A stretch of DNA of 64,000 nucleotides, taken from contig JALVDV010000007.1 of the NCBI GenBank assembly GCA_027008775.1, positions 5,797 through 69,796 on the forward strand, read 5' to 3'. Positions within the stretch are counted from its first letter, which is position 1. Every line of letters starts with the position of its first letter. The notes below the pieces were generated by a model, which worked only from the letters and a program-made list of their open reading frames with translations, did not search any database and was not told the origin of the DNA. The stretch is from Candidatus Moraniibacteriota bacterium. GTDB taxonomy: Bacteria > Patescibacteriota > Minisyncoccia > Moranbacterales > DUUL01. A program made the position numbers and the translations under genes. Shown here in pieces: positions 5,639 through 62,303 of this stretch.

Positions 5639-7063
5639 TTGTTGTTTATTATGCCGGAGAAAGTTATCAGGGTTTTCCCGCGGGGATTTTGTGCCGGGGT
5701 GACCAGGTCAATCAAGGCGGTGGAAGAAGCTTTGCGATTGTTTGGTCCGCCAATTTATGTTAAACATGCTATTGTACACAACAAAACCGTTATAGCTGAT
5801 CTGGAGCGAAAAGGGGCGGTCTTTGTTGAGGATTTAAAAGAAGTGCCTGAGGGGGCGACAGTTGTTTTCAGCGCGCATGGGTCTCCGCCGGAGCATTTTC
5901 GGGAAGCTAAAAAAAGAGGGTTGAGGTTAATTGACGCCACTTGTCCTTTGGTAACCAAGGTTCATTTTGAAATCGTTAAGGCTATTAAGGAGGGAAAACA
6001 ACCACTTTATATCGGTCACAAGGATCATGTGGAGGCGCAGGGAGTATTGGGGGAAGCAGAGCGACTTGGAGTTTCTGTGCCGGTTGTTAAAGATGAAAAG
6101 GATGTGGAGCTTTTGGATTTGAAAACAAAAAAGCCGATTGTAATTCTGGCGCAGACAACTTTCAAGGCGGAAAAAATTAAAGAGTTGGCGAAGCTTTTAC
6201 AGAAAAAGTTTGTCGGACAGAGGGTTGAGTTGATTGAAGACGATATCTGTTACGCCACCAGCAATAGGCAGAGGGCGATAACCGAATTGGCCAAAAAGGT
6301 GGAGGTGGTTTTGGTGGTTGGATCTAAAGAATCTTCCAATTCCAATCGTCTGGTGGAAGTGGCTAAGGAGGCCGGAGCGGAAGCTTTTTTGTTGGATGGC
6401 GTGGAAGATTTGCGGGCTGAGTGGTGGCGAGGGAAAAAGACGGTAGGACTATCGGCCGGAGCCAGCGCGCCGGAGTATAAGGTGCAAGAGTTGGCGGATT
6501 TTTTTCAAAAAAAAGGAGCCAGTTTGGAAGAATTGACCTTTGAGGAGAGGGAGTTGGTTTTTAAGGAGCCCTTGGAATTGGTGAAGATAAGACAAGCGTT
6601 GTCTCGGCTTAAAATTGAGTTTAATGGGGGAGGATTTGATATCAAAAAAGATTTTGTGGAAAATATTTTGCGGGAAACATTTTTGACTTTGTTGGAGAAG
6701 AAAGTTTTAACAAAAGAGGATTGTTGGCGACTAAGTGTGGCGGCGGTCACAAAGGCAACGATTAGAAAATTGAATAAAAAATGGCGTCAGACAGATAAAG
6801 AAACCGATGTTTTATCTTTCTATTACGGTCGAGAAGATGACTGCAAGGAAGGAGAGATTGTTTTGGCGCCGGAGGTTATTGCCGGAAATGCCAAGGAGGA
6901 CGGAGTTCCTTTTGATTATGAGTTGGCGAAAAATTTAATTCACAGTTTTTTACACATTATCGGTTATGAGCACAGTCGGGAGATGTTTGTTTGGCAAGAT
7001 AAAATTTTGAAGAGAATATTGAATAATAACTTAATAGGGAAAGAAAATGAGAAAATTTCTTAG
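5639..7063 (+). CDS. ispH: IspH (4-hydroxy-3-methylbut-2-enyl diphosphate reductase, LytB; aa 1-~318) fused in frame to the endoribonuclease YbeY (aa ~335-474)
   Basis: - IspH part: PRGFCAGV, DATCPLVTKVH, ICYATSNRQ (the three Fe-S cysteine motifs), SSNSNRL, FEERELVFKEPLEL C-terminus.
- YbeY part: TDVLSF, and HSFLHIIGYEH (the H-x3-H-x5-H metal triad).
- No stop or ATG between the two domains. Confidence 0.85.
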   Translation: MLFIMPEKVIRVFPRGFCAGVTRSIKAVEEALRLFGPPIYVKHAIVHNKTVIADLERKGAVFVEDLKEVPEGATVVFSAHGSPPEHFREAKKRGLRLIDATCPLVTKVHFEIVKAIKEGKQPLYIGHKDHVEAQGVLGEAERLGVSVPVVKDEKDVELLDLKTKKPIVILAQTTFKAEKIKELAKLLQKKFVGQRVELIEDDICYATSNRQRAITELAKKVEVVLVVGSKESSNSNRLVEVAKEAGAEAFLLDGVEDLRAEWWRGKKTVGLSAGASAPEYKVQELADFFQKKGASLEELTFEERELVFKEPLELVKIRQALSRLKIEFNGGGFDIKKDFVENILRETFLTLLEKKVLTKEDCWRLSVAAVTKATIRKLNKKWRQTDKETDVLSFYYGREDDCKEGEIVLAPEVIAGNAKEDGVPFDYELAKNLIHSFLHIIGYEHSREMFVWQDKILKRILNNNLIGKENEKIS

Positions 7064-7545: not shown

Positions 7546-8264
7546 TGGAAGAAAAAATAGAGACTCAAGAGGACTTGAGCAAAGGAGGGAAATTTAAGAA
7601 TTGGCTTCAGGATAATATCAGGATTATTTTATCGGTTTTAATCGTGGCCACTATTGCTGTCGGGATTTATTCTTATTCCAACAGACAGGTGGAAACGGTA
7701 GCCGACAACGGTCAGGAGAAAGTGAATTTGGCCGGTGAAGTGAAGGGGGGAGAAGAAGGAGTTGTAACTGTTGAAGGACAGGGTGAAAAGAAGAAAAAGG
7801 AAGAGAAGAAAAATTCCAGCCAAAAGCTTTCTGTTGAAGAAAAAAAAGAAACTGAAAAGGCTGCTGAAGCCAAGCAAAAAACCGAGGAGGGCAAAAAATC
7901 TCAACAAGCTGAAGGTCAAGCTGTTAAGAGGGTTCAAAAAGAGGAGAACAAAAATGTTAGTGAGGAAACAGAGCATTCTTTCTTGGAAACAGCTTCGGCC
8001 GGAGACAGTTTGACAACTTTGGCGCGTAGGGCCTTGAAGGACTACTTGGCCAAAAATCCGGTGGAAGGTTTGACGCCGGAGCACAAGATTTACATAGAGG
8101 ACTATCTTAGACGTCATGTAAATCATTCCAGTAGAGTTTTGGTGGGAGAGAAGATTTCTTTCTCCAAAGACTTAATTGCTCAGGCTGTAAAGGCGTCACA
8201 GAACTTGAGTGATACTCAGCTAAAAAACTTGCACAAGTATGTGGTTAGAGTGTCTAACTTATAG
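7546..8264 (+). CDS. membrane-anchored Lys/Glu-rich low-complexity protein with a C-terminal globular domain (hypothetical)
   Basis: GAGGTG RBS 7 nt before ATG 7546. One N-terminal TM (IRIILSVLIVATIAVGIYSY). The E/K-rich spacer explains the many spurious antisense ORFs. The ORF track extends it to 7491 through an alternative start. Confidence 0.5.
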
Positions 8265-8338
8265 AATTTAGAACACAAAGACTGGTCTTTGGTTTTGACT
8301 GAGAAATTAAAATAAATTTAAATATTGATCTTTCTTGA

Positions 8339-8376
8339 TAAAGCAAAATTCCGGCAACGTCCGGAATTTTGCTTTA
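8339..8376 (+). promoter_or_regulatory. perfect 16-bp inverted repeat (taaagcaaaattccgg-caacgt-ccggaattttgcttta) in the argS upstream region
   Basis: Seen directly. It is not followed by a T-run and has no T-box consensus. Confidence 0.35.
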
Positions 8377-8494
8377 TCCGGAGCATTTAGCAAAAGTGAA
8401 TCTTGCAAGCAGATTGATTTTTGGGAAAACGGATGATATATTTGGTTTGTCGTCTTTAAGCGTGTTTGGTGAATTTGTAAAGAAGTAAAAGTTT

Positions 8495-10282
8495 ATGTTG
8501 AAAAATAAATTAGAAAGTATTTTAATTGAATTTTTGCGAGAGAGTGGATTTTTGACGGCTGATATTCAGTCAGACTTGCTTAAACTAGAAATTCCTCCCA
8601 ATTTGGAGTGGGGTGATTTGTCTTTGCCTTGTTTTGGTTTGGCTAAGATTAAAAAGAAATCGCCGGTGGAAGTGGCTGAAGAGGTAGCTGTTTTGTTAAG
8701 GTCTGAAAAAGCGCAGAAAGACGGTTTGTCAGACAAGGTGATTGAAGTCAAGGCGATGGGTCCTTATGTTAATCTAAAATTAAAAAGCAAGTTTTCTTTT
8801 GGGGAAATTTACAATGATGTTTTTGCCAAAAAAACTGTTGCCGGGGCAACTCTTGCCGGGAAGAAGCGAGAGCAAGTAATGTTGGAATATCTTTCGCCGA
8901 ATACCAACAAGCCTTTACATTTGGGTCATTTGCGGAACGGAGTTCTGGGGATGAGTCTGGCCAATATTTTGGAGGCCAGGGGAGAAGATGTTTTAAAAAC
9001 AACCTTGATTAACGACAGAGGAGTTCATATTTGCAAGAGTATGTTGGCTTGGAAAAAGTTTGGAAACGGTGATACTCCAATCAGCACCGGGGTTAAAGGT
9101 GATCATTTTGTGGGTGATTACTATGTAAAATTTGCTCAAGAGGCGGAGGTTAATCCGGAGTTAGGGGAGGAGGCGCAACTGATGCTGAAAAAATGGGAAG
9201 AAGGCGACGAGAAAGTTAGGAAAATTTGGCAGAGAATGAATGATTGGGTTTGGGATGGTTTCAAAAAAACATTCAAGGTTTTCGGTTTTAAGTTTGATGT
9301 GATTTACAAAGAGTCGGAAACCTATCGTCTGGGTAAAGATATTGTTTTGGAGGGATTAAGAAAGGGGATTTTCCAGAAAGACGCCAAGGGAGCGGTAATT
9401 TTTGTTTTACCGCGGGAGTTCGGTTTAGATGAAAATGGTCAGAGGAAAAGAGTAACGCTTTTACGCGCTGATGGCACCAGTGTTTATCTGACGCAAGATT
9501 TGGGTACGGCTGTAAAGAGGATGAATGATTTTGTCTTGGATAAAATGATTTATGTGGTGGCCAGTGAGCAAAATTACCATTTTAAGGTTTTGTTTGCTGT
9601 TTTGAAAGCGCTGGGTTATACTTGGGCGAACAAGCTTTTTCATCTCTCTTATGAGATGGTCTATCTGCCAGAGGGTAAAATGAAATCTCGCGAGGGAAAG
9701 GTGGTTGACGCTGACGATTTGCTGGAAGAAGTTAAAAATTTGGCAAAGAAAGGTTTATTAGAGAGACATTCGGAAAAGAAATTATCGGAGAAAGAAGCGG
9801 AAAAAAGAAGTTTAAAGATTGCTTTGGCGGCAATTAAATTTTATTTGTTGAGAGTTAATCCTTCTCAGACGATTAATTTTAATCCGGAAGAGTCGCTTTC
9901 TTTTGAAGGCTTTACCGGACCTTATTGTCAGTATGCTTATGCTAGAGGGAGCAAGTTGTTGCGGGATGGAGGAGTTGATTTAAAGGAGAAATTAGAGACC
10001 GATTTTTCCCAATTGGGTAGTCGGTCGGAGAGAGCATTGCTAATGCTGATTGCCCGGCGAGAGGAGAAAATAAAAATGGCCGAGGAGGATTTTAATCCGG
10101 CTGTTTTGGCCAATTATGCTTTTGAGTTGGCCAAAGCTTTCAATCATTTTTATCATCAAGAGTCTATTCTGAAAGCGGAAACTGGTTTGAAAAAAGCGCG
10201 TCTGGCATTGGTGCAAACTTTCTTATTAACTTTGGAGGAAGTCTTGTCTTTACTGGGGATAGAAGTTTTGGCAGAAATGTAG
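8495..10282 (+). CDS. argS: arginine--tRNA ligase
   Basis: Class I HIGH motif PLHLGHLRN, an ArgS-type anticodon-binding C-terminus, ~595 aa. Confidence 0.9.
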   Translation: MLKNKLESILIEFLRESGFLTADIQSDLLKLEIPPNLEWGDLSLPCFGLAKIKKKSPVEVAEEVAVLLRSEKAQKDGLSDKVIEVKAMGPYVNLKLKSKFSFGEIYNDVFAKKTVAGATLAGKKREQVMLEYLSPNTNKPLHLGHLRNGVLGMSLANILEARGEDVLKTTLINDRGVHICKSMLAWKKFGNGDTPISTGVKGDHFVGDYYVKFAQEAEVNPELGEEAQLMLKKWEEGDEKVRKIWQRMNDWVWDGFKKTFKVFGFKFDVIYKESETYRLGKDIVLEGLRKGIFQKDAKGAVIFVLPREFGLDENGQRKRVTLLRADGTSVYLTQDLGTAVKRMNDFVLDKMIYVVASEQNYHFKVLFAVLKALGYTWANKLFHLSYEMVYLPEGKMKSREGKVVDADDLLEEVKNLAKKGLLERHSEKKLSEKEAEKRSLKIALAAIKFYLLRVNPSQTINFNPEESLSFEGFTGPYCQYAYARGSKLLRDGGVDLKEKLETDFSQLGSRSERALLMLIARREEKIKMAEEDFNPAVLANYAFELAKAFNHFYHQESILKAETGLKKARLALVQTFLLTLEEVLSLLGIEVLAEM

Positions 10283-10286
10283 ATTG

Positions 10287-11417
10287 TTAGAAATTCTTAT
10301 TAAGGGTTGTTTGGAAGTCTTTTTCAGCTTTGATAAGGTCTTTGTTTTTAAATATGACTTTCAAACTATTGTTGCTTGGTTTAACCTGGTATTCTTCGGC
10401 GACGACTTCCAGAAGTCGTTGGTCTTTGAAATAGAACTGTCCGTGGGTATCATCTTTTTGGCTGTAGAATATTCCAAAGATTCTGGCGCGCGGGTAGTTT
10501 TTTCGTAATTCGCTCAGTATTTTGGGGATGTGTTTTTCTTCAGCTCTTGATTTTAAAAAGTCTTCCGTGGAGAGGAGCGTCCAGACAAATTTTTTGGAAT
10601 TATCCCAGTTTAGCCTGGCCATGGCGCGACCCCACAATTTTAGAAAAGAAAGGGGTTTGGTGCGATAAAGTTTTCTAATAATTTCTTTTTGGTTGGCTCC
10701 CAATTTGATTAATTTGGCGGCGGTGAGAAGGGTTTGGGGGGTGGTGGTGGCTTTTTGAAAACTGTCCGTAGCGTTGATGATGCCTGTTAGTAATAATTGC
10801 GCCGTATCTTTGTTTAGACTGTCCGGATAAAGTTTTTCTAAGAGATTTGTTATCATTTCTCCCACCGATGGAGAAGTGAGATCCACAATGTTTACCTGAG
10901 CATAATCTTCATTGTCGCTATTGTTGTTGATGTTTATTTTCGGCACTTCAAAAAATAAGTCGGTGTTTTTTTGGTAAATTTCTCCGAGCGATTCAAGTTG
11001 AGGGGCGCCGATGATAACAATGAGGTCGTACTTAAAGTCAGCCGGTGCCAGAGAGAAGTCACGAGGATCTATGGCGCCTTTTTCCGGAGTGACTCTAATG
11101 ATTACTTCATCATCTTTCTCTTCCGTTTTGATATTTATGATTTTGTTGTGTTGAGTGTTAAAGATTAAAAGGAAGTCACGACTACCATCCAGGGAATCAA
11201 TAAATATTTCATCTCCCGGTTGTTTCAGAAAAGATAGTTCCTGGCGTTGTTCCAGATTATTGTTTATTATTTTAACTTCTTTGTTGTTTGTTTTTAAAGC
11301 TTGTTCCAAAGCAAAAGTGGCGGTGAGGTGGTCAAGGTTTGGCTGAGGTGGGGTAACCAGTAAAATCTGTGATGATTTATCTACTAAATTTTTAAATTCT
11401 TTGTATTGTTTTTCCAT
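10287..11417 (-). CDS. NrnA/DHH-family phosphoesterase homolog with degenerate catalytic motifs (likely pseudoenzyme)
   Basis: Collinear with Bacillus NrnA, but the catalytic motifs are substituted:
- PDPDAYGS becomes PNLDHLTA
- CDTAN becomes FNTQH
- DHH becomes NNN (ININNNSDNEDY)
- GDTG becomes NATD
The DHHA1-like C-terminus is retained. Confidence 0.55.
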   Translation of the reverse strand: MEKQYKEFKNLVDKSSQILLVTPPQPNLDHLTATFALEQALKTNNKEVKIINNNLEQRQELSFLKQPGDEIFIDSLDGSRDFLLIFNTQHNKIINIKTEEKDDEVIIRVTPEKGAIDPRDFSLAPADFKYDLIVIIGAPQLESLGEIYQKNTDLFFEVPKININNNSDNEDYAQVNIVDLTSPSVGEMITNLLEKLYPDSLNKDTAQLLLTGIINATDSFQKATTTPQTLLTAAKLIKLGANQKEIIRKLYRTKPLSFLKLWGRAMARLNWDNSKKFVWTLLSTEDFLKSRAEEKHIPKILSELRKNYPRARIFGIFYSQKDDTHGQFYFKDQRLLEVVAEEYQVKPSNNSLKVIFKNKDLIKAEKDFQTTLNKNF

Positions 11418-11797
11418 TTTTTATGTGGAGAAAATTTTTATTTTTGGTTTGCTATTATAACAGATTAAGAAAAGAAAACAAATTTTTTGTATTAGATGAC
11501 CACTTCTTGGACACTTTAGCACACCTTGAGGCAAATCTTACAAATGACAGATGGCGAATAATTTGGGTGGAGACAATTGATAAAGATTGTGGATAAATTT
11601 GGGTTTGCTTAATTGGTCTGGTTGTAAATTTAAATTGTGATTGAAAGATTCAGTATCCGTTGTTAACTGTCAGCATCAAAAGGGTGAAGAGGACTGAGAA
11701 GATAGAAAGAATCAGGAAAATAGAAGGGGTTAAAAAGTTGGGAATAATGTTTTTTATTTTCTTAATTTTTTAAACTTCATTTTTTCACGGTCGTTTC

Positions 11798-11883
11798 TAT
11801 TATGATATTATCAATAATATCATAATATTTGTTTGTGTTGTTGTTGGGAGTTGTATTATGATATTATCAATAATATCATAATA
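11798..11883. repeat. pair of 30-bp perfect palindromes (tattatgatattat-ca-ataatatcataata) separated by 26 nt. This is copy A of a ~130-bp repeat unit that also occurs at 61570-61700.
   Basis: Seen directly. 14-nt arms with a 2-nt centre. The same downstream flank motif (GTTT..GGGnGGGTA.T.ACTGA.AA) follows both loci. Confidence 0.8.
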
Positions 11884-12249
11884 CTTGTTTAGGGAGGGTA
11901 TTTTTACTGATAATGCTTGTTGGTTAAAATGAGAAGGGGTTCTGTTGTTTGACTGGGGTGTGACATTGTTGGGGGCACTTCTTGATTTTGCTTTTGGGGA
12001 AGAACTAAATTTTTTTGTTACAGTTTGTTGAGCCTGTTGGACAGAATGTTTTTTGCCGACCGGATGTTGAATGGTGTCTTGTTTGTTTTTGTTGTTAGTT
12101 AAAGATAGAGAAGAACAATAAGATAGGGACACTTCGTTTTTTTGTGATTTGATTCACGCCTGGACAAAGAAAAAGAGTTAGTGGGGAAATAAAATAACGA
12201 GTCTTAGAGCGTGTGAAAATATTAAGAGTATAAGTTTAGAAAAATTGTG

Positions 12250-12700
12250 AGATGTTTCACTCTTACTTTGGAGGCAAAAAAGACTACGGAAATTGTTGAG
12301 TTGAATAGAAAAACGGCACAAAACTGTTACAACAAAATTCGTAGAGTGGTAGCAAATCTCAGAAAAGATAGAATTGCCTGAAAGTTGCTTTGGTGGAAAA
12401 AGAAAGAGTAAAGACAATAGAGAAGTAAATGCTGTAGAGGGGATATCTGTTTTGGGGTTAAAAAGAAGAATAGAGAAATTGTATACATAAATTACAAAAG
12501 ACGCCTCAAGAGAAAAGTCTTGGGAATAGTCTAAGATGCGACTGGCAAAGTTTTGCGGATTGAATTAAAGGGGTGGGACGGAATCTTGTTGAAAGTTAGC
12601 ATACCTGGTATTTCTTTGTTAAAAGGATGGTGTTTTGAGGTGCGCTCGGGATATGAGATAAAAAATTGTAGCGTCGTTGAAATAAAAAAGTGAAGATTGT
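12250..12700 (+). pseudogene. decayed IS1595-family (ISXO2-like) transposase remnant, frameshifted and truncated
   Basis: Frame 1 encodes TTEIVELNRKTAQNCYNKIRRVVANL, which resembles the IS1595 N-terminal HTH (..sy.TAW.mlHKIR.am). After a +1 shift comes LPESCFGGKRKSKDNREVNAVEGISVLGLKRRIEKL, which resembles the start of the DDE domain (DEtyfGGK.k..rG...K..V.G..eR.G). Multiple stops, no intact ORF. Confidence 0.45.
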
Positions 12701-12703
12701 TTT

Positions 12704-13456
12704 CTAGTGTTGTCTGCCCAAAACGATGGCAGAAATACTTTTCGGTTGGAGCTTTTTAACTTCTCGGGCCAAAGTGAAGAGAGTGGCGCCGGTGGTGCTG
12801 ACATCATCCACCAACAAAACATGTAGGTTGTTTAGATTTTTTTGAGAGGAGCGATTGATTTGTTGCCAGTCAAAGTCTTTGTTTATCTGAAAGGAATGGC
12901 GGACATTTTCTTGTCTTTGTCGGTATTTTTTAATTTTTCGTTGAGGAGTGGTGTAGCGTTTTTTGTTAACCAAATTTTTAACCAAAGGGATTTCCAGACT
13001 CGGCAATAGTTGGGAAGCGATTTCTTGGGCTAATAGTTCCGATTGATTGAAGCCTCGCCAGCGGAGACGATAAGGGTGTAGAGGGACCGGTATGATAAGG
13101 TCGGGAATTGGCAGAGAGCTTTTCCTTAGTTTTTCTATCATTATTTGTGATAAGGGGGCGGCCAGTTTTTTGACAAATTTGTATTTCAAATAATGAATGG
13201 CCGTAGCCAATAATTTGTCTTTATAATCGGCGACCACCAACAATCGGTCCAAGGAGACATTGGTTTGTTGGCGACAGGAGCGACAGATTTCCCCGTTTTT
13301 GGTAACGGATTTTTCACAGAGCGGGCAGACTTGCCAAGAAAGTTGCCGGATGCTTTTCAGGCATTCCGGACAGAGGATTTGATTTTCTTTTTGACAACCG
13401 AGACATTGTTGCGGAAAGAGAAGTTGCCGAATGATTTTTTTCAGAAAAGAAAGCAT
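12704..13456 (-). CDS. comFC: competence protein ComFC (ComF-family phosphoribosyltransferase-fold protein)
   Basis: N-terminal tetra-Cys zinc finger (CLGC...CPEC...CPLC), C-terminal PRTase motif VLLVDDVSTTGATL. Confidence 0.75.
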   Translation of the reverse strand: MLSFLKKIIRQLLFPQQCLGCQKENQILCPECLKSIRQLSWQVCPLCEKSVTKNGEICRSCRQQTNVSLDRLLVVADYKDKLLATAIHYLKYKFVKKLAAPLSQIMIEKLRKSSLPIPDLIIPVPLHPYRLRWRGFNQSELLAQEIASQLLPSLEIPLVKNLVNKKRYTTPQRKIKKYRQRQENVRHSFQINKDFDWQQINRSSQKNLNNLHVLLVDDVSTTGATLFTLAREVKKLQPKSISAIVLGRQH

Positions 13457-13490
13457 AATTTAGAGAATTCTTGGGCGAGAGCAGTCTGCT

Positions 13491-15917
13491 CTATTGAACC
13501 ATAATTTTTCTCTTTTGCGCCAGAAGTTTAAATTTTTTTGGTGACTTGGGGGAGGCGGTTTGTTTAAGAATGAGTTGAGCAACAACCGGTTCAACCAAGT
13601 TCTGAATATTTTGTCTGACCAGACGAGCGCCTTGTTGAGAAAGATGACTTTTTTGTTTTAAGAGTTCAATTACACTCTTGTCTATTTCCAGTTGAATTTT
13701 CTTCTGGACCAGTTTTTGTTTTAGCTCGTTTAATTCTCGTTTGATAATAGTGGAAAGCTCGCGGTTGTTGAGTTGGTTGAAGACTAAAATGTTGTCTAAG
13801 CGATTGATTAACTCGGGACGCAGTTGCTTTTCCAGTTCTTTGAAAATATCTTTTTCCAGATTTTTAGCAGATATTTTTTGCGAAGGTTGTTTGGCGAAGC
13901 CGAGAGAAAGTTGTTTGCTGAATTTTTCGCTGCCAATGTTGGAGGTTAGGATAATCAGTGAATTTTTCAAATTGAGTTTTTTATTTTTGGCGTCAACCAG
14001 TTCTCCCTCTTCCAAAATTTGTAAGAGGATGTTAAGAATCTGAGGATTAGCTTTTTCTATTTCATCAAAGAGAACGACGCTAAAAGGATTTTTTAAGAGC
14101 TTGTTGCTAAATTCGCCTCCTTCTTCGTAGCCAATGTAGCCGGCGGGCGCTCCTAGAAGTCGGGAAAGACTGTGTTTTTCGGTAAATTCGCTCATATTTA
14201 TTTGGATCAAAGAAGGTTGTTCATTGGGAGAAATGGCTTCGGCCAATAGTTTGGCTGTCATTGTTTTGCCAACACCGCTGGGTCCGATAAACAGGAAAGA
14301 GCCCAGTGGTCGGTTCTCTTTGCTGAGACCGGCCAAACGTCTGGCAATGGTTTCATTTATTTTTTTCTTGACGTGGGTTTGTCCAACCAATTTACGATTG
14401 AGATTTTGGGAGATTTTGCTGGCCAGAGCGGAATTGTGGTTATTGAGGACATCCAAAGAAATTCCGGAAATGGCCGACAAAGTCGTGAGAACATCGTCAC
14501 GGGTAACCTTGCTTTTTTTATTTTTCAAATCTTTTTGTAAAATTCTTTCCTCATTTTGTAATTCCTTCAGGAGGGCCACCTCTCTTTTTTTAATAGCCAA
14601 GGCTTCGCGGTATTTGTTTTGCAGGATAAGTTTTTCTTTCAACTGATTGAGCTGTTGCAATTGCTGTTTTTTGTTGAAATATTTTCGTGATTTCTCCGTA
14701 TCGGCTTGTTGGCTCTTGCGACGGGCGGCGCTTTCATCCAATAGGTCAATGGCGCTGTCGGGCAGGAAGCGATTGGTAATGTATCTCTTAGCCAGTCGGG
14801 GAATTTCTTTTAAGGCCGAGTCTGCAAAAGAGACATTATGAAAAGTTTCATAGTGTTTTTTAAGTCCGCGGATTATATTCTCTGTTTCAGACAGGCTGGC
14901 TTCCTGAATGATAATCGGCTGCATTCGTCGCTCCAGAGCGGAATCTTTTTCAATGTGTTTTTTGTATTCGTCAATGGTGGTGGCGCCGATGATTTGAATT
15001 TCACCCCTGGCCATAGCCGGCTTGAGAATGTTGGCGGCATCCATCCCGCCGGTGGCATTGCCGGCTCCCACCAAAGTATGCACTTCGTCAATGAAAAGAA
15101 TTATATTTCCTTGTCTTTTGACGGTGGCGATGACTTCTTTTAAGCGAGCTTCAAACTCTCCGCGGAAAGTTGTGCCGGCAATCAATTGGCTTAAGTCTAG
15201 AAGCATAATTTGTTTGTTCATCAGATATTCCGGGACTTCCAATTGATTGATTTTTTGGGCCAGACCTTCAACAATGGCTGTTTTACCTACGCCGGGATCG
15301 CCGATTAAAATGGGATTGTTTTTGGTTTTGCGTCCCAAAATTTGAATAAGCCGATTGATTTCTTTCTCTTTGCCGATCAGAATTTGTTTGCGAGGGTCTA
15401 TCTTATTGAGATTGGTGCAATAAACGTTCAGAATGTTGTTAGCTTCCGGTGTTGCTTGGGGTAGTCTGCCGGGGAACAAATCACGGAGCAATTTTTCAAC
15501 TTCTTCATCCATTTCTTCAGCGGCAAAATCTTTGGGCGGTCTGCCGAGGGCGTGGAGAAGGCCTATTTTCTTGCCGTTTTCCAAAAAATTGCTTCCGTTT
15601 TGCGGTTCCAGGTAATTGATAAATACTTGGAGAAGGTGCTCGGTGCCTACCAATGGATTTCCGTTCAGGTAGGCCATGCGGGTGGCTTGAAAAATCAAAT
15701 CGCCGGCGCTCAGGTTGCTTTTTTTTAAGGCATTGATAATAAACTCTTTGGTTTTGATGTCTAAGGAGTCAAAAATGCTTTTGCCGTAGCAACCGCTTTT
15801 CTTTAAAATATTCTCAATGATGTATCTGGCTTTGATGTTGACTAATTTTTGTCCGGGAAAGGTTTTCTCGGTCAGTTTGATAATTTCTTTGGCGTTGTTG
15901 GTAAAATACTTGTACAT
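13491..15917 (-). CDS. clpC: Clp/Hsp100 AAA+ chaperone, ClpC-type ATP-binding subunit
   Basis: Two AAA+ modules ([31 protein letters not shown]), Clp_N repeats at the N-terminus, ~808 aa with a short middle domain. Confidence 0.85.
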
Positions 15918-16038
15918 TTTTTTTATTATGTTATAATTCTGGTGAGTAGTTGAAATTCAGCGTTTTTTATTTTTCTGTTGCCTGATTTTATCACAAAAAA
16001 CGCCTTTTATCAATAGTAAAAAGAAAAAGAAAATTACA

Positions 16039-17172
16039 ATGAGTAGCAAGTTACTAGGGAGTTTGCTGGGTGGTATTTCCGAGGTTTTTGATAAAGACGA
16101 CACAGCTGTCGGAGTTGATGTTGGGAGTAACAGTATTAAGGTGGTTTCGCTTAAAAGAAAGGGGGAAAAGATTGTTTTGGATAATTATGCGGTAGTGAGA
16201 AGCGAAGATAAACTTTTGAATTTAGCCAATCCGGGAGTTATCAATGATTTGGCGGGGGTTGTTGCCAAACAAGCTTTGGAAGCGGCCGGTATAAAAGAAA
16301 AAAAGGTGAATGTGGCCACTCCGAGCTTTACTTCTTTGGTGGTAACCATTGAAGTTCCCAAGATGCCCGAGGAGCAATTTGAGGAAGCGGTTCGCAAGGA
16401 AGTTTCCAAATATATTCCGGTGAGCATTGAAGACGTGGTTTATGATTGGCAGGTAATCAATGAAGATGTTTTGCAAAGTAATGAGAAGGCTATTACGCCG
16501 GAGGAACGACAGAAGCTTCAAAATCAGTCCAATTCGGTAAAGATTTTGGTGATCGCTATTATAAAAGAAATAAGCGCTAGGTATAATAAGGTTTTTAGAG
16601 ATAATGGTTTGGAGTTGAACCTGTTGGAGATAGACTCTATTTCTTTGGCCAGGGCTCTGGCCGGGCCGGAAGGGGAGATTTCTTTGATTTTGGACATTGG
16701 ACATGAAACCTGCAATGTGATCATTTCTTCTCGGGAAGGGTTGTTGTTGAATAGAACGATAGATGTTGGAGGAGACACTATAACCAGAAAAATTGCCGAA
16801 ACTTTGGGAGTTGATTTTGCGGAGGCGGAGCGTTTAAAAATAGAAAAGGGATTGCACCTGGTGGATTCGAAAAGTGGAAAAAATATTTCTCTGGAGCCGG
16901 TGATTAAAATAGTGGATGAGCTAAAAAGGACACTCAAGATTTTTGAGGAAGATTTTCAGAGGTTAAAAGTGAAGGAAGTCTATTTAACCGGGGGTTCGGC
17001 GGCAATGATTGGTTTGAAAGATTTTTTGGAAAAAGAGCTGAATTTGCCGGTTTTGGTAGCCAACCCTTTGCGAGGAATCGCTTTTGCGCCGGAAGTAGAA
17101 GAGGCTTTATTGAAGCATGCTCCGCTGTTGACCATTGCTATCGGATTGGCTTTGGCCAATTTTGAAAAATAA
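16039..17172 (+). CDS. pilM: type IV pilus assembly protein PilM (actin-like ATPase fold)
   Basis: VGVDVGSNSIKVV phosphate-1 motif, later DIGHETCNV. It opens the pilMNO-pilB-pilT-pilC operon. Confidence 0.8.
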   Translation: MSSKLLGSLLGGISEVFDKDDTAVGVDVGSNSIKVVSLKRKGEKIVLDNYAVVRSEDKLLNLANPGVINDLAGVVAKQALEAAGIKEKKVNVATPSFTSLVVTIEVPKMPEEQFEEAVRKEVSKYIPVSIEDVVYDWQVINEDVLQSNEKAITPEERQKLQNQSNSVKILVIAIIKEISARYNKVFRDNGLELNLLEIDSISLARALAGPEGEISLILDIGHETCNVIISSREGLLLNRTIDVGGDTITRKIAETLGVDFAEAERLKIEKGLHLVDSKSGKNISLEPVIKIVDELKRTLKIFEEDFQRLKVKEVYLTGGSAAMIGLKDFLEKELNLPVLVANPLRGIAFAPEVEEALLKHAPLLTIAIGLALANFEK

Positions 17173-17255
17173 GGAACAAAAATAAAATAAAAATAAAAAG
17201 TAAATTAAATTTTTTTGGTCTGAATTTTTAGGCCGAGAAAATTGTTGAAAAAACA

Positions 17256-17837
17256 GTGAAGAAGATAAATTTGAAAGCCGGGGAGATAAAGGGTGACTCC
17301 TCCTCAATCTCGGGAGGTGGTTTTGGCGCCATCCTTTCCGCAGTTTTTGTTTTGGTTTTGACGGCCGGTTTATACGGAGCGTCCTACTACCTCTTGAAAC
17401 GAGAGCAGGGTAAAAAGCGGCATCTGGAGACGGAGATTGTTAATATCAAAAATAGTTTAGATAGAAATCAGGAGTTTCAAAAACTGTATGCTTTTCAAGA
17501 AAGACTTTTTAATTTGTCTGAAATTTTTAATGTCAAAATTGGGCAGGCTGAATTTCTTTCTCGTCTTTCGGCCAAAACTTTGGATAGAAATACTGTTAAG
17601 GATTTAAATATTGACTTCAAAGAAGGAAGCAGAAAGATTGTGTTGACGGAAGTTGTGCCCGATCTGTCAAGTTTGGCTGAGCAAATTGCGGCTTATAACT
17701 CCCTTGACAAGGAAGGGCAGGCTTCTTTGACTGATATGAAATTGCAAGGTGATGCTTTGGAGTCCACCATTTCTTTTAATTTAAAAGAGAAGGAGAAACA
17801 GACCGGAAAAACCGGTGATTCTTCCGCGGGGAAGTAG
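17256..17837 (+). CDS. pilN: PilN-like bitopic pilus assembly protein
   Basis: Single N-terminal TM, coiled periplasmic region, position immediately after pilM. Confidence 0.5.
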   Translation: MKKINLKAGEIKGDSSSISGGGFGAILSAVFVLVLTAGLYGASYYLLKREQGKKRHLETEIVNIKNSLDRNQEFQKLYAFQERLFNLSEIFNVKIGQAEFLSRLSAKTLDRNTVKDLNIDFKEGSRKIVLTEVVPDLSSLAEQIAAYNSLDKEGQASLTDMKLQGDALESTISFNLKEKEKQTGKTGDSSAGK

Positions 17838-17878
17838 TTTATTGTTTTATTGTTAATAATAATTTATTCAATAACTAG

Positions 17879-18700
17879 ATGAACATTAGGCTTTTATTTT
17901 TACCTCTCTCCATTGTTGTTTTTTTGTGGGTGACAATTGGTTTTACTAAAAGCAATTGGGATCAGTACCGGCAGACGAAGAAAGAGGTGAAAGAATTGAC
18001 CGTTTCCAGAGATAAATTGGCTCGGGGTGTGAGTAAAATTAGAAAGGCTTTGGCTGATTACAAGGCTTTGGACGAAGAAACTCTTCTTTATGTTAACAAT
18101 GCTTTGCCGGAGAAGAAGAAGGCGGAGGATTTGGTGGCGGAATTAAATAAGAATGCCAGTCAGGGAGGGGTTTTGTTGACCAAGGTTACTGTGGCTCAAA
18201 ACAGACAGAGGCGCAGAACAAATTGTTCGCGAAAAAGCGGGACTGCCAGCGCTAAGAGTGGGGCCAGGCCAAATTGTGTGGCTCAGCCCGACAGTTTACA
18301 AGTGAGATTGACTTTATTTTCTTCTTATTTGTCCGCTAAGAATTTTTTGGCCAAACTGGATAAGGAGAATAGGGTTATTTTGCCGGTAGCTTTGCGAATA
18401 TCTAAGAATACAAACAAACAACAGGCTGAGGAAAACAAGGATAAATTGGGAGAGGGTGGTACCGGAGAGGATTTGGTGAGTACCGATTTGCGTTTCAATA
18501 TTTTTTACAAAAAACCGAGAAGCGAGAATTTGAGATTTTCTCAAATGTTGGGCAAGGATAAAGTTTTGGACAGTTTGTTGAGTAAGGGCTTGGCCAAGGA
18601 TACTATTGATAAATTAAAAGAAGTTGTTGGCGGACAACTTTTCCGGCCGGTGGAAGTTGGAAATACCGGAAAAGAAGATTTGTTTAAAAAGAATTCGTAA
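17879..18700 (+). CDS. pilO: PilO-like bitopic pilus assembly protein
   Basis: N-terminal TM (LLFLPLSIVVFLWVTIGF), position between pilN and pilB. Confidence 0.45.
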   Translation: MNIRLLFLPLSIVVFLWVTIGFTKSNWDQYRQTKKEVKELTVSRDKLARGVSKIRKALADYKALDEETLLYVNNALPEKKKAEDLVAELNKNASQGGVLLTKVTVAQNRQRRRTNCSRKSGTASAKSGARPNCVAQPDSLQVRLTLFSSYLSAKNFLAKLDKENRVILPVALRISKNTNKQQAEENKDKLGEGGTGEDLVSTDLRFNIFYKKPRSENLRFSQMLGKDKVLDSLLSKGLAKDTIDKLKEVVGGQLFRPVEVGNTGKEDLFKKNS

Positions 18701-23688: not shown

Positions 23689-24081
23689 ATGTTGCGGAAA
23701 AATAAAAGTGGTTTTACCTTAGTTGAGATATTATTGGTGATCGCGGTTATTGGGATTTTGTCCAGTGTAATCATGGTGGGGATTGGTGGTGTTCGGAAAA
23801 AAGCCAGAACATCGGCAGCTCTGAAAACGGCCGAGAGCGCAACGGCTGAACTGGCGCATTGTTATTTAAATGATAAGCCTATTACACCGTGGACCAATAA
23901 TATAAATGGTGGCGGAATTATCTGTTCTGGCGCCGGGGAATGGCCTTCTTTAACGCATCGTTGTCATTATGATATTTTTAATGCTGCTAATTATGAGTTT
24001 TCAATTAAGTGTAATGATGACCAGCATACCATAACTTGCAATTACGCCGATGGTAAGTGTATCGTCAGTTATGGTAGCTAG
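23689..24081 (+). CDS. type IV pilin paralog 2
   Basis: MLRKNKSGFTLVEILLVIAVIGILSS, with C-terminal cysteines. ATG 23689 is chosen over the longer alternative-start ORF at 23581. Confidence 0.75.
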   Translation: MLRKNKSGFTLVEILLVIAVIGILSSVIMVGIGGVRKKARTSAALKTAESATAELAHCYLNDKPITPWTNNINGGGIICSGAGEWPSLTHRCHYDIFNAANYEFSIKCNDDQHTITCNYADGKCIVSYGS

Positions 24082-30912: not shown

Positions 30913-32373
30913 TTGACGGTTGTGATTATGAATGAATTTAAAAGAGTTTATATTGTTGGTATTGAAGGAGCCGGTACTTCCGCTTTGGCCGGTATTTTGA
31001 GGGTGCAAGGTAAAGAAGTGGTTGGCTCAGATGAAGGTGATCATTTCTATTATGATGTTCTGCGGCGGCAAGGAATAAAAGTATTTCATCGTTTTGATAA
31101 GGATAATCCTCGGCGAGCTTTTGCCGGTCAAAAAATTGATTTGGTGATTTATTCCACTGTTTTTTCGCAGAAGGATAATGTGGAGTTGCGGGAGATAAAG
31201 AAAAAGAAATTAGCCAAAGTGGTTTGGGAGTACCCGCGGGCTTTGGCGGAGGTTTTCAACAGGGCCGGTTTTGGCATAGCTGTTTGCGGCACCCATGGGA
31301 AGACAACCACTACGGCCATGTTGGGAACCGTTTTGCAAAAGCTGGGGTTAGCGCCGACTGTTTTAGTGGGAGCCAAGGTTTTGGAGTGGGGCAGTAATTG
31401 TTTGGTTGGGAATCGTAAGGACTCAATTTTGCTTGGTTCGCAAAAAATGGATTCTTGTACTGATTGTTTTGTGATTGAAGCGGATGAGTATCAGAATAAA
31501 TTACGCTATTATCAGCCACGGGCGGTGATTTTGACGAGTGTGGATTACGACCATCCGGATTTTTTCAAAAGCGAGGAGGAGTACAAACAAGTTTTCAAAG
31601 ATTTTGTGGCTAAAATTCCGGCAGACGGATTTTTAGTAGCTTACGCGGGAGACAAGAATGTAGTTGAAGTTTCCCGGAGCGCTTCTTGCGAAGTGGTTTT
31701 CTATGACAAGTTGGCGGCCAAGGATATCTTGTTAGGTGATGATTTTTGCAGTTTGTCTGAGTGTCGGGGGCGAACCTTCGGTTGTTGTCCGGCAGGCAAA
31801 GAGAGTCAAGACAAAATTCGTTTGTTTGGCGAACATAATCTGCTGAATGCCATGGCTGTTTTTCGCTTGGCGCAAAAGTTGAATCTGGATTTGGATAAGG
31901 TGAAAAAAATTTTACGGGAATTTCGGGGGACGGCCAGGCGCTTTGAAATAAAGGGAGAGTTTCAGGGAGCGTTGATTGTTGATGATTACGCTCATCACCC
32001 GGCGGAAATTAGGGCGACTTTAAAAATGGTCAAGGAGAGATATCCGAATAAAGTTTTGAAGGTGATTTTTCACCCGCACACTTTCAGTCGGACTGAGGCT
32101 TTGTTGAGCGAATTTGTTGACAGTTTTAAGTTGGCAGATGAAATTTATTTTTTGGATATTTTCGGTTCGGCCAGAGAAAGGGAGGGAAAAGTGGATAGTG
32201 ATGATCTGGTGGCTTCGGCCAGAAAAAAATATCCGGAGAAGCGAGTGGAAAATTTACAGACGATTGAAAAGGCAGTTGAGTATTTTCGGAAAAATCTTGG
32301 TCGCGATGATATTTTACTGACTATGGGCGCCGGCGATGTTTACTTGGTAGCGGAGAAATTACTTAAATTCTAA
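30913..32373 (+). CDS. murC: UDP-N-acetylmuramate--L-alanine ligase MurC
   Basis: N-terminal VYIVGIEGAGTSALAGIL...GSDEGD, P-loop GTHGKTTTTAML, Mur ligase middle and C domains, ~486 aa. Confidence 0.8.
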   Translation: MTVVIMNEFKRVYIVGIEGAGTSALAGILRVQGKEVVGSDEGDHFYYDVLRRQGIKVFHRFDKDNPRRAFAGQKIDLVIYSTVFSQKDNVELREIKKKKLAKVVWEYPRALAEVFNRAGFGIAVCGTHGKTTTTAMLGTVLQKLGLAPTVLVGAKVLEWGSNCLVGNRKDSILLGSQKMDSCTDCFVIEADEYQNKLRYYQPRAVILTSVDYDHPDFFKSEEEYKQVFKDFVAKIPADGFLVAYAGDKNVVEVSRSASCEVVFYDKLAAKDILLGDDFCSLSECRGRTFGCCPAGKESQDKIRLFGEHNLLNAMAVFRLAQKLNLDLDKVKKILREFRGTARRFEIKGEFQGALIVDDYAHHPAEIRATLKMVKERYPNKVLKVIFHPHTFSRTEALLSEFVDSFKLADEIYFLDIFGSAREREGKVDSDDLVASARKKYPEKRVENLQTIEKAVEYFRKNLGRDDILLTMGAGDVYLVAEKLLKF

Positions 32374-36232: not shown

Positions 36233-37327
36233 ATGAAGAAAATTACGGAAAAAGAGTGGCGGAGGGCAACAGATTTGTTCTTAAATGAACTAAGCGAGAG
36301 ACAAAGAAAATTAGTTTCTCGCCGTTTTGGTTTACAGAATAAAAAAGCGCGGACATTGGCCGCCATCGGTAGAAGTGAGGGAGTGTCCAGAGAACGTGTC
36401 AGGCAGATTGTGACCGGCGCTTTGAGAAAACTTAAAAAGAAAATAGAAAGAGCCGGAGAGAATGAAGAGAAAAAAGAGTTTTACAAAACGATTCTTGGGA
36501 GAATTGAGGAAGAGGGCGGAGTTATTGGCCGGAATGTTCTTTTGCGAGAAACATTGTCTGATAAGACGACTCTGTCGCGGGCGAAGCGAGCGGGAATGAT
36601 TAGTTTTATTTTAAGTTCTTTGCCCGGTTTGCAATACAAAAAACCTTCCGTTCGTTTTGGTGAGTTGTGGTATTTGCCTCAGGCCAAAGATTTTGTTACT
36701 AAAGTTGATCGTTTTCATAATGATTTGGTTGCTTATTTTGAAAAGCAGCAGAGGCCTTATACTTTTGCCAAGTTGCGAAAGGAATTCGGATCTTATGCAA
36801 AGGCTTATGCAGAAAAAGGAATTAAAAAATTAGAGATTGACAAAAAGAAGCTAGGGTTGCTTTTGCGGGAAAGTTATCTTTTAGGAGAGAATATTTTGGG
36901 GCAATGGGGATTAGCGAAGTGGAAGATTGTTAGGCCGACGGCTGTCAGGGAGAAAGCTTATTTGGTTTTCAAAAAAGAGAGGGAGCCTTTGCATTTTAGA
37001 GCGCTGACGACACGGATTAACAAGTACTGGAGTAGTGGCAGGCGCGCTTTGCCGCAAACGGTGCATAACGCCATTATTAAATATCCGGAGTTTGTGGTGG
37101 TTGATTTGGGGACCTACGGCTTAAAGGAATGGTTGTATGAAGAAAATGATATTCGGCAGAGGTTACTGGATTTTTTTGAGAAAAACAAAAAGGCCTCCAT
37201 TGAGGAATTAGTGAGTTCTTTGAAGAAAACAAAAGAAAGCAGGGTTCGTCTGGAAATCACTTTGCGAGCAATACTGCACAGAGAAAAGATGTTTATTCGC
37301 CGAAATGGTAAATATATGGTAAAATAG
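36233..37327 (+). CDS. DNA-binding protein with an N-terminal sigma-70 region-4 HTH and a C-terminal HARE-HTH-like domain
   Basis: - LSERQRKLVSRRFGL...TLAAIGRSEGVSRERVRQIVTGALRKLKK is sigma70_r4-like.
- EPLHFRALTTRINKYW...LPQTVHNAIIKYPEFVVVDLGTYGLKEW is HARE-HTH-like. Confidence 0.55.
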   Translation: MKKITEKEWRRATDLFLNELSERQRKLVSRRFGLQNKKARTLAAIGRSEGVSRERVRQIVTGALRKLKKKIERAGENEEKKEFYKTILGRIEEEGGVIGRNVLLRETLSDKTTLSRAKRAGMISFILSSLPGLQYKKPSVRFGELWYLPQAKDFVTKVDRFHNDLVAYFEKQQRPYTFAKLRKEFGSYAKAYAEKGIKKLEIDKKKLGLLLRESYLLGENILGQWGLAKWKIVRPTAVREKAYLVFKKEREPLHFRALTTRINKYWSSGRRALPQTVHNAIIKYPEFVVVDLGTYGLKEWLYEENDIRQRLLDFFEKNKKASIEELVSSLKKTKESRVRLEITLRAILHREKMFIRRNGKYMVK

Positions 37328-37500
37328 TCTTGGCGTAGAACTTATCTATGGTTTTCCCTTTCTAATGTTCAGTTAGGCTTTCTGGATGTTATTTTCTATC
37401 TGGTGTTTGAGGCTTCGTTGATTGAAAAAGGAGTCAAACATGTGTCTGAAAATAATATTCAAAAGGCTTGGCGGATAAAGGGTTTGAAATGATGACTCCG
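37317..37500 (+). promoter_or_regulatory. extended -10 (TGgTAAAAT, 37317-37325) plus conserved leader element copy A (~37368-37500)
   Basis: ~80% identical over ~130 nt to 42122-42265 (GGATGTTATTTT..TGGTGTTTGA..GTTGATTGAA..AAGTCAAA..GTCyGAAAATAA..TCAAAAAGCTTG). The minus-strand ORFs covering it are presumed spurious. Confidence 0.5.
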
Positions 37501-37584
37501 AATGAATTGACGACGAGGGCAGTAGGAAACGGAGCGGTATTTTCTCTTGCTTGTCTTGTTTTTTGGAAATTGTCAAAATAAAAT

Positions 37585-42021: not shown

Positions 42022-42077
42022 AGTTTTAATTTTTTGAGAATGTCATTGTAAAATTTCACCAAATAGTCAAAGTGGTG

Positions 42078-42265
42078 TATAATTTTTGTTGAAGAATTCA
42101 TCGGGTTCTCCTTTTTCAATATTTAGTCAAGCTTTTTGGATGTTATTTTTTACTTGGTGTTTGACACTTTGTTGATTGAAGAATAAGTCAAATATATGTC
42201 CGAAAATAACACTCAAAAAGCTTGAGAGACAAAGAGTTTAGGAGGGTAGCTCTAAGTGAATTATG
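42078..42265 (+). promoter_or_regulatory. -10 TATAAT (42078-42083) plus conserved leader element copy B (~42122-42265)
   Basis: Paralogous to 37368-37500. Confidence 0.5.
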
Positions 42266-61448: not shown

Positions 61449-61569
61449 TTTGTCAGTTTCGTTTTGGTTAGGAATGTTTTCAGTCTGTTCAGATTTTTTG
61501 TTAATGAATTTTTTGTTAGTGAGCCAAGGAAGTTTTAGATAAAATTACTTACTCATGGAGATGTCAACT

Positions 61570-61653
61570 TATTATGATATTATTGATAATATCATAATAT
61601 ATTTGTTATCTGTGGTGGGGTGGTATTATGATATTATCAATAATATCATAATA
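61570..61653. repeat. second pair of the 30-bp palindrome (centre tg in the first copy, ca in the second), separated by 24 nt. This is copy B of the ~130-bp repeat unit.
   Basis: Seen directly. Same palindrome arms as at 11798-11883, and a similar G-rich downstream flank. Confidence 0.8.
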
Positions 61654-62303
61654 CCCGAAAAGTTTGTTGCTGGGGGGGGTAGTGACTGAAAAGATGAGGA
61701 TTATTTTTATTCCTGCCTTTTGATGACGGTAGTCGATCTATTGATATTAAAGTTCTTGTTTACTATCTATAACCATAGTTTGTTTCGGTAGCTAAGGCCA
61801 ATAAGCTGAGTGCGATTTCTTTTGTTTATGGTTGGTTTTGAATTTTTTCTATTGTTTGTTACCTGTGGGATTTTTTAAATACGTTGACTATTTGAAAAGT
61901 TGCTCTCTTGTGTTTGACCCATCAAGGATTCTCTTTCTAAATTTTTTGCCCATCAAACTTTCCGGGCATTATTTTCAGATTTATATTTGATTTCTTCTTT
62001 AAGCAACAAAGTGTCAAATATCAGGCAGAGAACAACATCCAGAAAGCTTGACTGAATATTGGAAAAGAAAAATCCTAAATGAGTTTATTGGTAAAGTGTC
62101 GAGTAAATGATTAGTAGGAGGTGGTGCCGTTGAGGTTCAGACAATGTTGAGAGATGAGGTAGGGATTTCAGAGAGGTTTGGGGTTGTTTGTATTGCGATT
62201 ATTTTGTACACTTTGTTTATCAGAAGAAATTGTTATACCAGAATGATTAGCCCACAGTTTTGTTTTGAATATTTTTGGAGGGGATAAGTTTTAGTTTAAT
62301 TGT

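Follow-up and report, generated by a model that had tools for sequence, protein, structure and literature searches.

The palindromes and their two loci

We analyzed a stretch of 64,000 nucleotides (nt) from contig JALVDV010000007.1 (positions 5,797 to 69,796, forward strand) of a Candidatus Moraniibacteriota bacterium (GCA_027008775.1), hereafter the window, and focused on a 30-bp palindrome that occurs in it four times, as two pairs in two intergenic spacers. Each copy, hereafter a dyad, consists of two 14-nt arms around a 2-nt center, TATTATGATATTAT-CA-ATAATATCATAATA, and is perfectly symmetric (Table 1). An initial annotation, made from the letters of the sequence, had described the palindrome as occurring twice, 26 nt apart, in a 1.3-kb non-coding island. 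Both statements were confirmed: the copies of pair 1 have 0 mismatches, and the island is the spacer between two minus-strand genes, bordered by the start of a gene of 376 amino acids (aa; 10287-11417) and the end of a ComF-like gene (12704-13456). Pair 2, which is bordered by ftsI (59607-61448) and by a gene for a Mur ligase (62304-63548), has the same arms, the first copy in reverse orientation (center TG) and the second with the center CA. The starts of the two copies are 56 bp apart in pair 1 and 54 bp apart in pair 2, leaving spacers of 26 and 24 nt. The same annotation had proposed a unit of ~130 bp shared with 61.6 kb. The palindromes do recur there, but a blastn alignment of the two pairs found identity essentially confined to the palindromes; spacer and flank are not shared, and both spacers are merely G/T-rich.

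Scanning the window for the 30-mer with up to 3 mismatches returned 8 strand-matches, compared with 0.00 expected from 100 shuffles of the window. A looser template (ATTAT-N3-ATTAT-N2-ATAAT-N3-ATAAT, ≤3 mismatches) found exactly four sites, all of them the known palindromes, and zero degenerate ones. Separately, 14-mers resembling a half-site (≤2 mismatches to one arm) number five in the window versus 0.43 expected for all matches, and one of them (TATTATGTTATAAT) sits 7 nt upstream of the start codon of a clpC-like gene. The spacing of 54-56 bp is kept in four pairs though the spacer sequences differ: the two in the window, one in locus L082 (17149/17203, with an unrelated 24-nt spacer), and one in L090 (1528/1584, 26 nt).

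The dyad in other genomes

We searched one genome per species with the pattern TATGATATTAT-NN-ATAATATCATA and found 21 loci, of which 20 are in metagenome-assembled genomes (MAGs) of Patescibacteria, Paceibacterota, Parcubacteria or Saccharibacteria; 12 of the contigs come from one MAG. A metagenome scan added 48 further loci, and the motif is therefore not confined to the two loci of the window. We assembled 79 non-redundant instances. Positions 1-3 and 28-30 are conserved across them though the search pattern had left these positions free, C1 is usually paired with G30, and the sequence starts with TATTAT or CATTAT. The center is CA/TG in 61% of the instances, and the copies are nearly all intergenic. 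The orientation of the center is unbiased relative to gene direction (14 versus 20), as would be expected if duplex DNA is recognized symmetrically. Some instances in other genomes form a subgroup with A-tract/T-tract flanks (e.g. L024 and L064). Rfam gave nothing at either window locus, at the gathering threshold or at E-values up to 1, and literature searches with the motif string and for regulator motifs of the candidate phyla radiation (CPR) found nothing relevant.

Variation within the dyad follows a template, TATTAT-NNN-ATTAT-NN-ATAAT-NNN-ATAATA, in which positions 7-9 differ by lineage or paralogue and the complementary change is always present in the other arm. The triplet is GAT in the window, P0001, P0002, L023, L031, P0027 and P0018; GTT in P0016, P0028 and P0011; ACG in P0025; ATT in P0021 and P0013; AGT in P0019; and AAT in L062. 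Two paralogues on one contig, P0025 (ACG) and P0028 (GTT), have different triplets, and P0013 and P0019, on FLOH01000029, also differ, less cleanly. Rare changes elsewhere in the arms are usually mirrored in the opposite arm. All variants have (C/T)ATAAT as the outer hexamer of both arms, which resembles a -10 box directed outward, and those with an AT center contain a further, inner TATAAT. The symmetric, paralogue-specific triplets look like those of co-evolving regulator-operator pairs.

A winged-helix gene lies between dyads

We clustered all open reading frames (ORFs) within 1.5 kb of dyad instances, and one family recurred across unrelated contexts. Its members have 95-102 aa and begin MKITEKQIKLLELYFKAVANKKRIKIL..., and they are predicted to be winged-helix proteins (see below). 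This gene of ~97 aa adjoins a dyad in L006/L039, L015, L023/L043/L058, L031, L049 and L062. It stands between two dyads in L015, L023, L031, L043 and L058. In L006 and L039 there is one dyad, after the stop codon of the gene, and in L062 a variant dyad (G7A with C24T) is found 20 nt upstream of its start. The arms of dyad 1a in the window are identical to those of the GAT-type dyads that flank the gene in L006, L015, L031 and L090.

The association was also examined from the side of the protein. A homology search returned 34 clusters, and every source name given was Patescibacteria or Pacebacteria. All eight homologues that we looked up (L070-L081) have a template dyad both upstream and downstream, and P0018 likewise. 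In those eight loci, a dyad is present in 16/16 spacers flanking the gene versus 1/25 of the other spacers (Fisher p = 1.6e-10). The upstream dyad ends 13-50 nt before the ATG of the winged-helix gene (14 loci). Downstream of the stop codon, the next dyad starts after 3-25 nt, except in two loci, where the distance is 102 nt. The whole dyad-gene-dyad cassette was found in at least four different gene neighborhoods. We conclude that the dyad and the winged-helix gene travel together.

Paralogues of the gene occupy two recurrent neighborhoods (L070, L075, L078 and L080 versus L006, L015 and L079) besides a third. In one, the gene and a P-type cation ATPase gene point away from each other, and yqeY follows the regulator. 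In the other, it lies between rpe-tkt and mnmA, and in the third it lies near the genes for RNase R and mraZ. One candidate regulator gene, P0018, has GAT-type dyads on its flanks and a 56-bp doublet nearby. It originates from the sampling series JOHN19-1, in samples other than the source of a scaffold 99.3% identical to the window. MAG RS_5_36 contains both P0016, a regulator, and GAT-type dyads, on different contigs.

The partner protein has a predicted ArsR/SmtB-like fold

Pfam matches of the protein were marginal overall and spread over MarR, HTH_24 and HTH_5. Among seven proteins searched, HTH_5 (the ArsR model) was at or below the cut-off in all but one, whereas MarR was above it in 5/7 and HTH_24 in 6/7. 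A profile search of the PDB listed HlyU first (3jth, E = 1.4e-6), then AspA, SlyA, MntR, CadC, PagR and CzrA. An AlphaFold model (predicted local distance difference test score, pLDDT, 96) has the topology a1-a2-a3-a4-b1-b2-a5, and its top Foldseek matches were CzrA (template-modeling, TM, score 0.86), SmtB, NolR, HlyU and CadC. With these results, we predict that the protein has an ArsR/SmtB-like winged-helix fold. P0001 and most other members have no cysteine, and in alignments none of the alpha3N/alpha5 metal-site residues is present, a5 having no His/Asp/Glu cluster. Because it has neither cysteines nor an alpha5-type metal site, the protein resembles the non-metal members of the family (HlyU, NolR and PagR).

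Regulators of different lineages are 56-85% identical to each other. Among 1.84 billion representatives at 50% identity, we found one at E < 1e-30 and 111 matches at E up to 1e-10. The family is therefore a narrow clade, since it collapses to a single 50%-identity cluster.

The palindromes as candidate operators

Of the functions suggested in the initial annotation, a site for a dimeric helix-turn-helix regulator is the one that gained support, since in related loci the dyad brackets a small winged-helix gene of the ArsR/SmtB fold. We propose, with moderate confidence and from sequence comparison, that the four palindromes of the window are 14-2-14 operators of such a regulator, analogous to the 12-2-12 sites of SmtB and CzrA, and that its gene lies outside the window. 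Because the motif brackets one regulator gene across Patescibacteria, docking sites for a regulator are the most likely role of the palindromes, rather than a jumping element. The evidence consists of co-location, the paralogue-specific variants, the predicted fold, and the precedent that the family offers for the operator geometry.

A possible mechanism is as follows. One dimer or two of the winged-helix protein would bind each dyad, and the bound protein would cover the outward -10-like boxes and so might autoregulate its own gene. Within a pair, the dyads are separated by about five turns of the helix and may be bound cooperatively. Dispersed orphan copies, such as the four in the window, would then be further sites of the same protein. 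They could act as repressible bidirectional promoters, or as roadblocks or insulators between transcription units, which in the window would separate ftsI from the murE-like gene and comF from the 376-aa gene. Binding, autorepression through the -10-like boxes, cooperative occupation of the doublet, and the roles of the orphan copies are all inferred.

Several observations weigh against an operator role. The link between protein and dyad is one of co-location in sequence, and no homologue of the regulator was found within the 64-kb window. We also found none in the parts of L082-L084 beyond its right end (~9.5 kb in L082). A weak regulator-like match at 49456 is region 4 of a sigma-70 factor, whose gene is encoded in the window. 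The two-sided bracketing of the regulator gene fits a plain regulon poorly. The sites in the window are away from promoters, 340-650 nt from the next start codon, and the 376-aa gene has a perfect extended -10 of its own (TGTTATAAT, 11462-11454 on the minus strand) 36 nt upstream of its ATG. Its promoter is thus likely to be independent of the dyads, which lie 340 nt further upstream. Many copies stand directly after stop codons (0-30 nt). In addition, sites are perfect or absent with no graded degenerates, a pattern that one would not usually expect of a regulon and that is closer to copied repeats. Palindromy also runs on into non-conserved flanks, for a mean of 2.08 bp versus 0.49 bp by chance, so that the longest perfect palindromes reach 40-42 bp. 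A protein that binds duplex DNA has no obvious need for this extension. Finally, the one position of the recognition helix that we examined (A-S/T-H versus A-V-H) tracks the triplet uncleanly. A-S/T-H pairs with GAT in 5/5 cases, yet P0011 (ASH) has GTT, so that no simple code from recognition helix to triplet emerged.

Alternative explanations

Because copies are perfect or absent, because flanks extend the palindromes, and because the sites are far from promoters, a role like that of repetitive extragenic palindromes (REPs), or of a cruciform, is a real possibility, albeit an unlikely one. At the ends of transcription units, the dyad would then form a hairpin in RNA or, when the DNA is supercoiled, a cruciform; it would multiply by copying and serve as a terminator, a 3'-end stabilizer, an RNase target or a topological barrier. 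The winged-helix protein would be an incidental neighbor, or would bind the extruded structure rather than a B-form operator. Here the annotation's view that the arms are too tight for an RNA hairpin was wrong as stated. The RNA folds as a stem of 13-15 bp with a 4-nt loop (-10.7 to -17 kcal/mol, z about -5), and pair 2 has an alternative 31-bp hairpin at -37.5 kcal/mol. The copies that follow stop codons and the triplet changes, always compensated in the other arm, point the same way, as does HlyU, the closest solved homologue by sequence, which acts at a cruciform-forming AT-rich palindrome (PMC10325908). What speaks against such a role is that the sequence, not pairing alone, is conserved across lineages whose regulators have diverged to the extent given above, and that the tight two-sided link to one DNA-binding gene is unexpected for a generic hairpin. 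In addition, strands show no orientation bias, and no REP-associated tyrosine transposase (RAYT) or Y1 transposase is among the recurrent neighbors. A consensus scan found no canonical terminator at the dyads, and their stems are not G+C-rich, with one G-C pair per arm in each; in this they do not match an intrinsic terminator.

A second possibility, which we consider quite unlikely, is that dyads and winged-helix protein form a genome-structuring system rather than an ordinary regulon. The perfect, cruciform-prone palindromes would be kept symmetric by template switching, and the paralogue-specific triplets would be addresses that let HlyU/AspA-like proteins mark the boundaries of transcription units. 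In the very small genomes of CPR bacteria, such marks might act as roadblocks made of protein or of a cruciform, as insulators, or as sites of condensation, and the dyad-gene-dyad unit might itself be a relocatable cassette. If true, this would account for why the gene is bracketed on both sides, why copies are perfect or absent, why palindromy runs into the flanks, and why the sites form doublets and stand away from promoters. Homogenization by template switching could also explain the symmetry and its extension into the flanks without selection on structure.

It is improbable that the dyads are bidirectional promoter modules, whose inverted -10-like hexamers would form a strong sigma-70 promoter both ways without a dedicated protein. 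The outer hexamers present in every variant, the inner TATAAT of AT-centered ones, the sigma-70 gene in the window, and dyads that end 13-38 nt before the ATG of the winged-helix gene are all consistent with this. Promoters, however, need neither 28 conserved positions nor perfect dyad symmetry, a copy stands directly after the stop codon of the same gene, and in the window no gene lies in the 380-820 nt that follow the copies. Promoter-like sites were also no more common in the consensus scan than in shuffled sequence.

Two other candidates were rejected. A two-repeat CRISPR array (30-bp repeats with 24-26-bp spacers) is ruled out by the perfect palindromes, the single copies elsewhere and the flanked winged-helix gene. 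DNA uptake sequences occur at a density of about 1 per kb, and the dyads at ~1 site per 10 kb, with all window copies intergenic, are not of this kind.

Related assemblies and a mobile origin

The initial annotation had favored a mobile or recombinogenic origin, and we now consider this highly improbable. In such an origin, the pair would be a miniature inverted-repeat transposable element (MITE) or a non-autonomous derivative of an insertion sequence (IS), or the dyad would be the crossover site of a serine or tyrosine recombinase with a 2-bp center. The dyads do resemble hix/res-type sites in their 14-2-14 layout and in a central dinucleotide that varies and is often asymmetric, the copies are multiple, identical and dispersed, and the winged-helix cassette occurs in several neighborhoods. 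However, the flanks of the dyads have no direct repeats and hence no target-site duplications, and the pairs have only the dyads in common, with no conserved spacer, flank or body. No transposase or recombinase recurs among the neighbors of 88 dyad instances (the window's own genes were not all scanned), and the dyad pattern had zero matches in 2.9 million viral contigs.

We compared the window with assemblies that are 100% (SRR8439053), 99.3% (JOHN19-1 scaffold_248) and 97.9% identical (GCA_026992875.1) for presence or absence of the pairs. Together they retain both pairs intact, with pair 2 present at 99.3% identity (L082) and pair 1 at 97.9% (L085). No empty site lacking a pair was found among the related assemblies recovered, which are a small sample, and the whole interval between the pairs is collinear in the 99.3% scaffold. 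A strain comparison through the 376-aa neighbor gave no result, the exact protein not being on record.

The IS1595-type remnant near pair 1, which the annotation had taken as a sign of mobility, gained faint support. Broken reading frames at 12247-12693 on the plus strand, such as ...ESCFGGKRKSKDNREVNAVEGISVLGLKRRIEKLYT..., resemble a decayed transposase of the IS1595/ISXO2 type, and tblastn gave weak matches to annotated IS1595-like (ISAcra1) transposases (E = 0.8, 28.6% identity) as well as matches at E = 0.01 to unannotated Neisseria DNA. Pfam found zero matches on the stitched translation of the same interval. The putative remnant is 370-800 nt from pair 1, and none was seen at the other dyad loci.

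The related assemblies contain more copies. A third pair lies ~5.5 kb beyond the right end of the window (L082:17149-17232, 54-bp spacing, second copy imperfect), and a single copy lies ~7.6 kb past that end (L082:19325-19354), which gives 7 copies in ~74 kb. The third pair is followed by a conserved block, AGGATAAAATTTGTGATYRAAATTTTG...TTGACA promoter, and then by genes for secreted proteins that are 48-79% identical to dyad-carrying cassettes in MAG S145_42. Six short-read contigs (L083, L084 and L086-L089) start or stop inside a dyad, at window positions ~11854-11870 and 61627, with L083 and L084 beginning within dyad 2b. Because these are six independent contigs, we conclude that dyads systematically break short-read assemblies of this population, which is useful to know when finishing CPR genomes.

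The comparison with L085 (window positions 7702-18456) also showed a sharp recombination boundary at 11441-11522. Divergence is 6.4% in argS, the 376-aa gene and the first 100 nt of the spacer, and <1% from ~11523 on. The break is ~275 nt from pair 1, not at it. Mosaic blocks of like kind were seen relative to L082 at 56.5-57.5, 60.5 and 63.5 kb.

Surroundings of the pairs

Table 1. Positions of the dyads, their spacers and other repeats; coordinates are in the window unless a locus is named.
Feature	Position	Strand	Remarks
Spacer with pair 1	11418..12703	no strand	1.3 kb; context, outside the motif
Dyad 1a	11798..11827	no strand	perfect 14-2-14, center CA, 0 mismatches
Pair 1 spacer	11828..11853	no strand	26 nt, G/T-rich; length conserved between pairs, sequence not
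Dyad 1b	11854..11883	no strand	center CA; flanking G and C make 32 bp (GTATTATG...CATAATAC)
Spacer with pair 2	61449..62303	no strand	0.85 kb; context, outside the motif
Dyad 2a	61570..61599	no strand	perfect, center TG; dyad 1a in the opposite orientation
Pair 2 spacer	61600..61623	no strand	24 nt
Dyad 2b	61624..61653	no strand	perfect, center CA; GG/CC flanks make 34 bp
170-190-nt hairpin repeat	37319-37508	+	intergenic
170-190-nt hairpin repeat	42074-42263	+	intergenic
170-190-nt hairpin repeat	61917-62086	-	intergenic; within the spacer with pair 2
170-190-nt hairpin repeat	L029:6894-7074		outside the window
170-190-nt hairpin repeat	L060:1410-1600		outside the window
Half-site-like 14-mers	15924-15937, 7023-7036, 23965-23978, 31048-31061, 38797-38810		match to one arm

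Both host spacers are unusually long. A sensitive blastn of the two against 90 related loci found the dyads and an unrelated hairpin repeat of 170 nt to be conserved, and nothing else. This second repeat family is a long imperfect hairpin (...CAAGCTTTCTGGATGTTATTTTC...GAAAATAACATCCAGAAAGCTTGA...). One copy lies ~270 nt downstream of pair 2, and in L029 the distance between the copy and a dyad is ~300 nt. The family is without an Rfam match and could be MITE-like or a structured RNA. In addition, a 14-nt unit (GAGCAGAGAACAGT-like) forms a tandem array of at least 6 copies at 244-355 of the window, overlapping an ORF at 60-458.

The G-rich flank that had been singled out at pair 1 is nothing special to the element, as it matches the very strong GC skew of almost the whole window, where plus-strand values per kb are about +0.2 to +0.45 whether the DNA is coding or not. 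The skew drops only where minus-strand genes lie, e.g. at 14-16 kb. A replication origin or terminus is ruled out by the uniformly positive skew across the window. The 49.7 kb between the two loci hold core genes (type IV pilin-like repeats, mraZ/mraW/ftsL/ftsI, rpoD and ftsA), and these, together with the collinear scaffold, rule out that the loci are the borders of an island.

Comparison with known systems

Patescibacteria are mostly uncultured and possess few transcription factors, and experiments have revealed almost nothing about how they regulate their genes. A conserved and easily recognized predicted pair of protein and site (a 97-aa protein, a simple 30-bp site and a candidate specificity triplet) therefore offers a testable start. 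It could give a first regulon map for the group, or a first insulator or terminator mechanism.

Repetitive extragenic palindromes and bacterial interspersed mosaic elements (REP/BIME) of enterobacteria and pseudomonads are intergenic palindromes of 20-40 nt, often paired with short linkers and often just after genes. Their copies are near-identical within a genome and can fold as RNA hairpins. The dyads are likewise paired, intergenic, often after genes and capable of forming hairpins. They differ in their low density, in having no conserved 5' GTAG and no RAYT transposase among their neighbors, and in a sequence that is common to distinct MAG lineages rather than species-specific and is tied to the winged-helix gene.

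AspA, the centromere-binding protein of the archaeal plasmid pNOB8, is also a small winged-helix protein and has the top identity among the structural matches (25-26%). It binds a palindromic site beside its own gene and spreads along DNA. AspA belongs to a three-gene plasmid partition cassette (AspA, ParB and ParA), whereas the dyads have no recurrent partner genes and are scattered over chromosomes.

HlyU is the best solved relative by sequence (3jth) and is a member of the ArsR/SmtB family of ~98 aa that does not sense metal. In Vibrio, it binds an AT-rich palindrome with inverted-repeat flanks that overlaps a cruciform-forming locus at exsBA (PMC10325908). Its site (ATATTAG-ATTTAATTTA-CTAATAT) is imperfect, is found at a few virulence promoters, and has not been described either as a perfect repeat scattered through the genome or as flanking hlyU itself.

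The closest likeness is to the operators of ArsR/SmtB repressors, which recognize 12-2-12 inverted repeats, present in one or two copies at promoters or close to them (PMC8790569). As at the sites of SmtB (two repeats in smt O/P), ZiaR, AztR, AzuR and CzrA, we find a long inverted repeat with a 2-bp center, occurring once or twice and, in the related loci, close to the regulator's own gene, and the partner protein has a similar predicted fold. The neighborhood in which the regulator is divergent from a P-type cation ATPase recalls ZiaR/ZiaA and CadC/CadA. This ATPase carries Cation_ATPase_N/C domains, which mark P2-type rather than heavy-metal P1B-type pumps. The dyads differ in that their 14-bp arms are perfectly symmetric and unrelated in sequence to the TGAA-type consensus, that they flank the regulator gene both upstream and downstream, and that numerous identical orphans and doublets of 54-56 bp are scattered through the genome. 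The protein differs in having neither cysteines nor alpha3N/alpha5 metal-site residues. The ArsR/SmtB-type dyad operator is thus known as a kind. We consider the following features new, having found none of them in the searchable literature: this pair of protein and site, its confinement to Patescibacteria, the dyads on either side of the gene, and the perfect doublets scattered through the genome.

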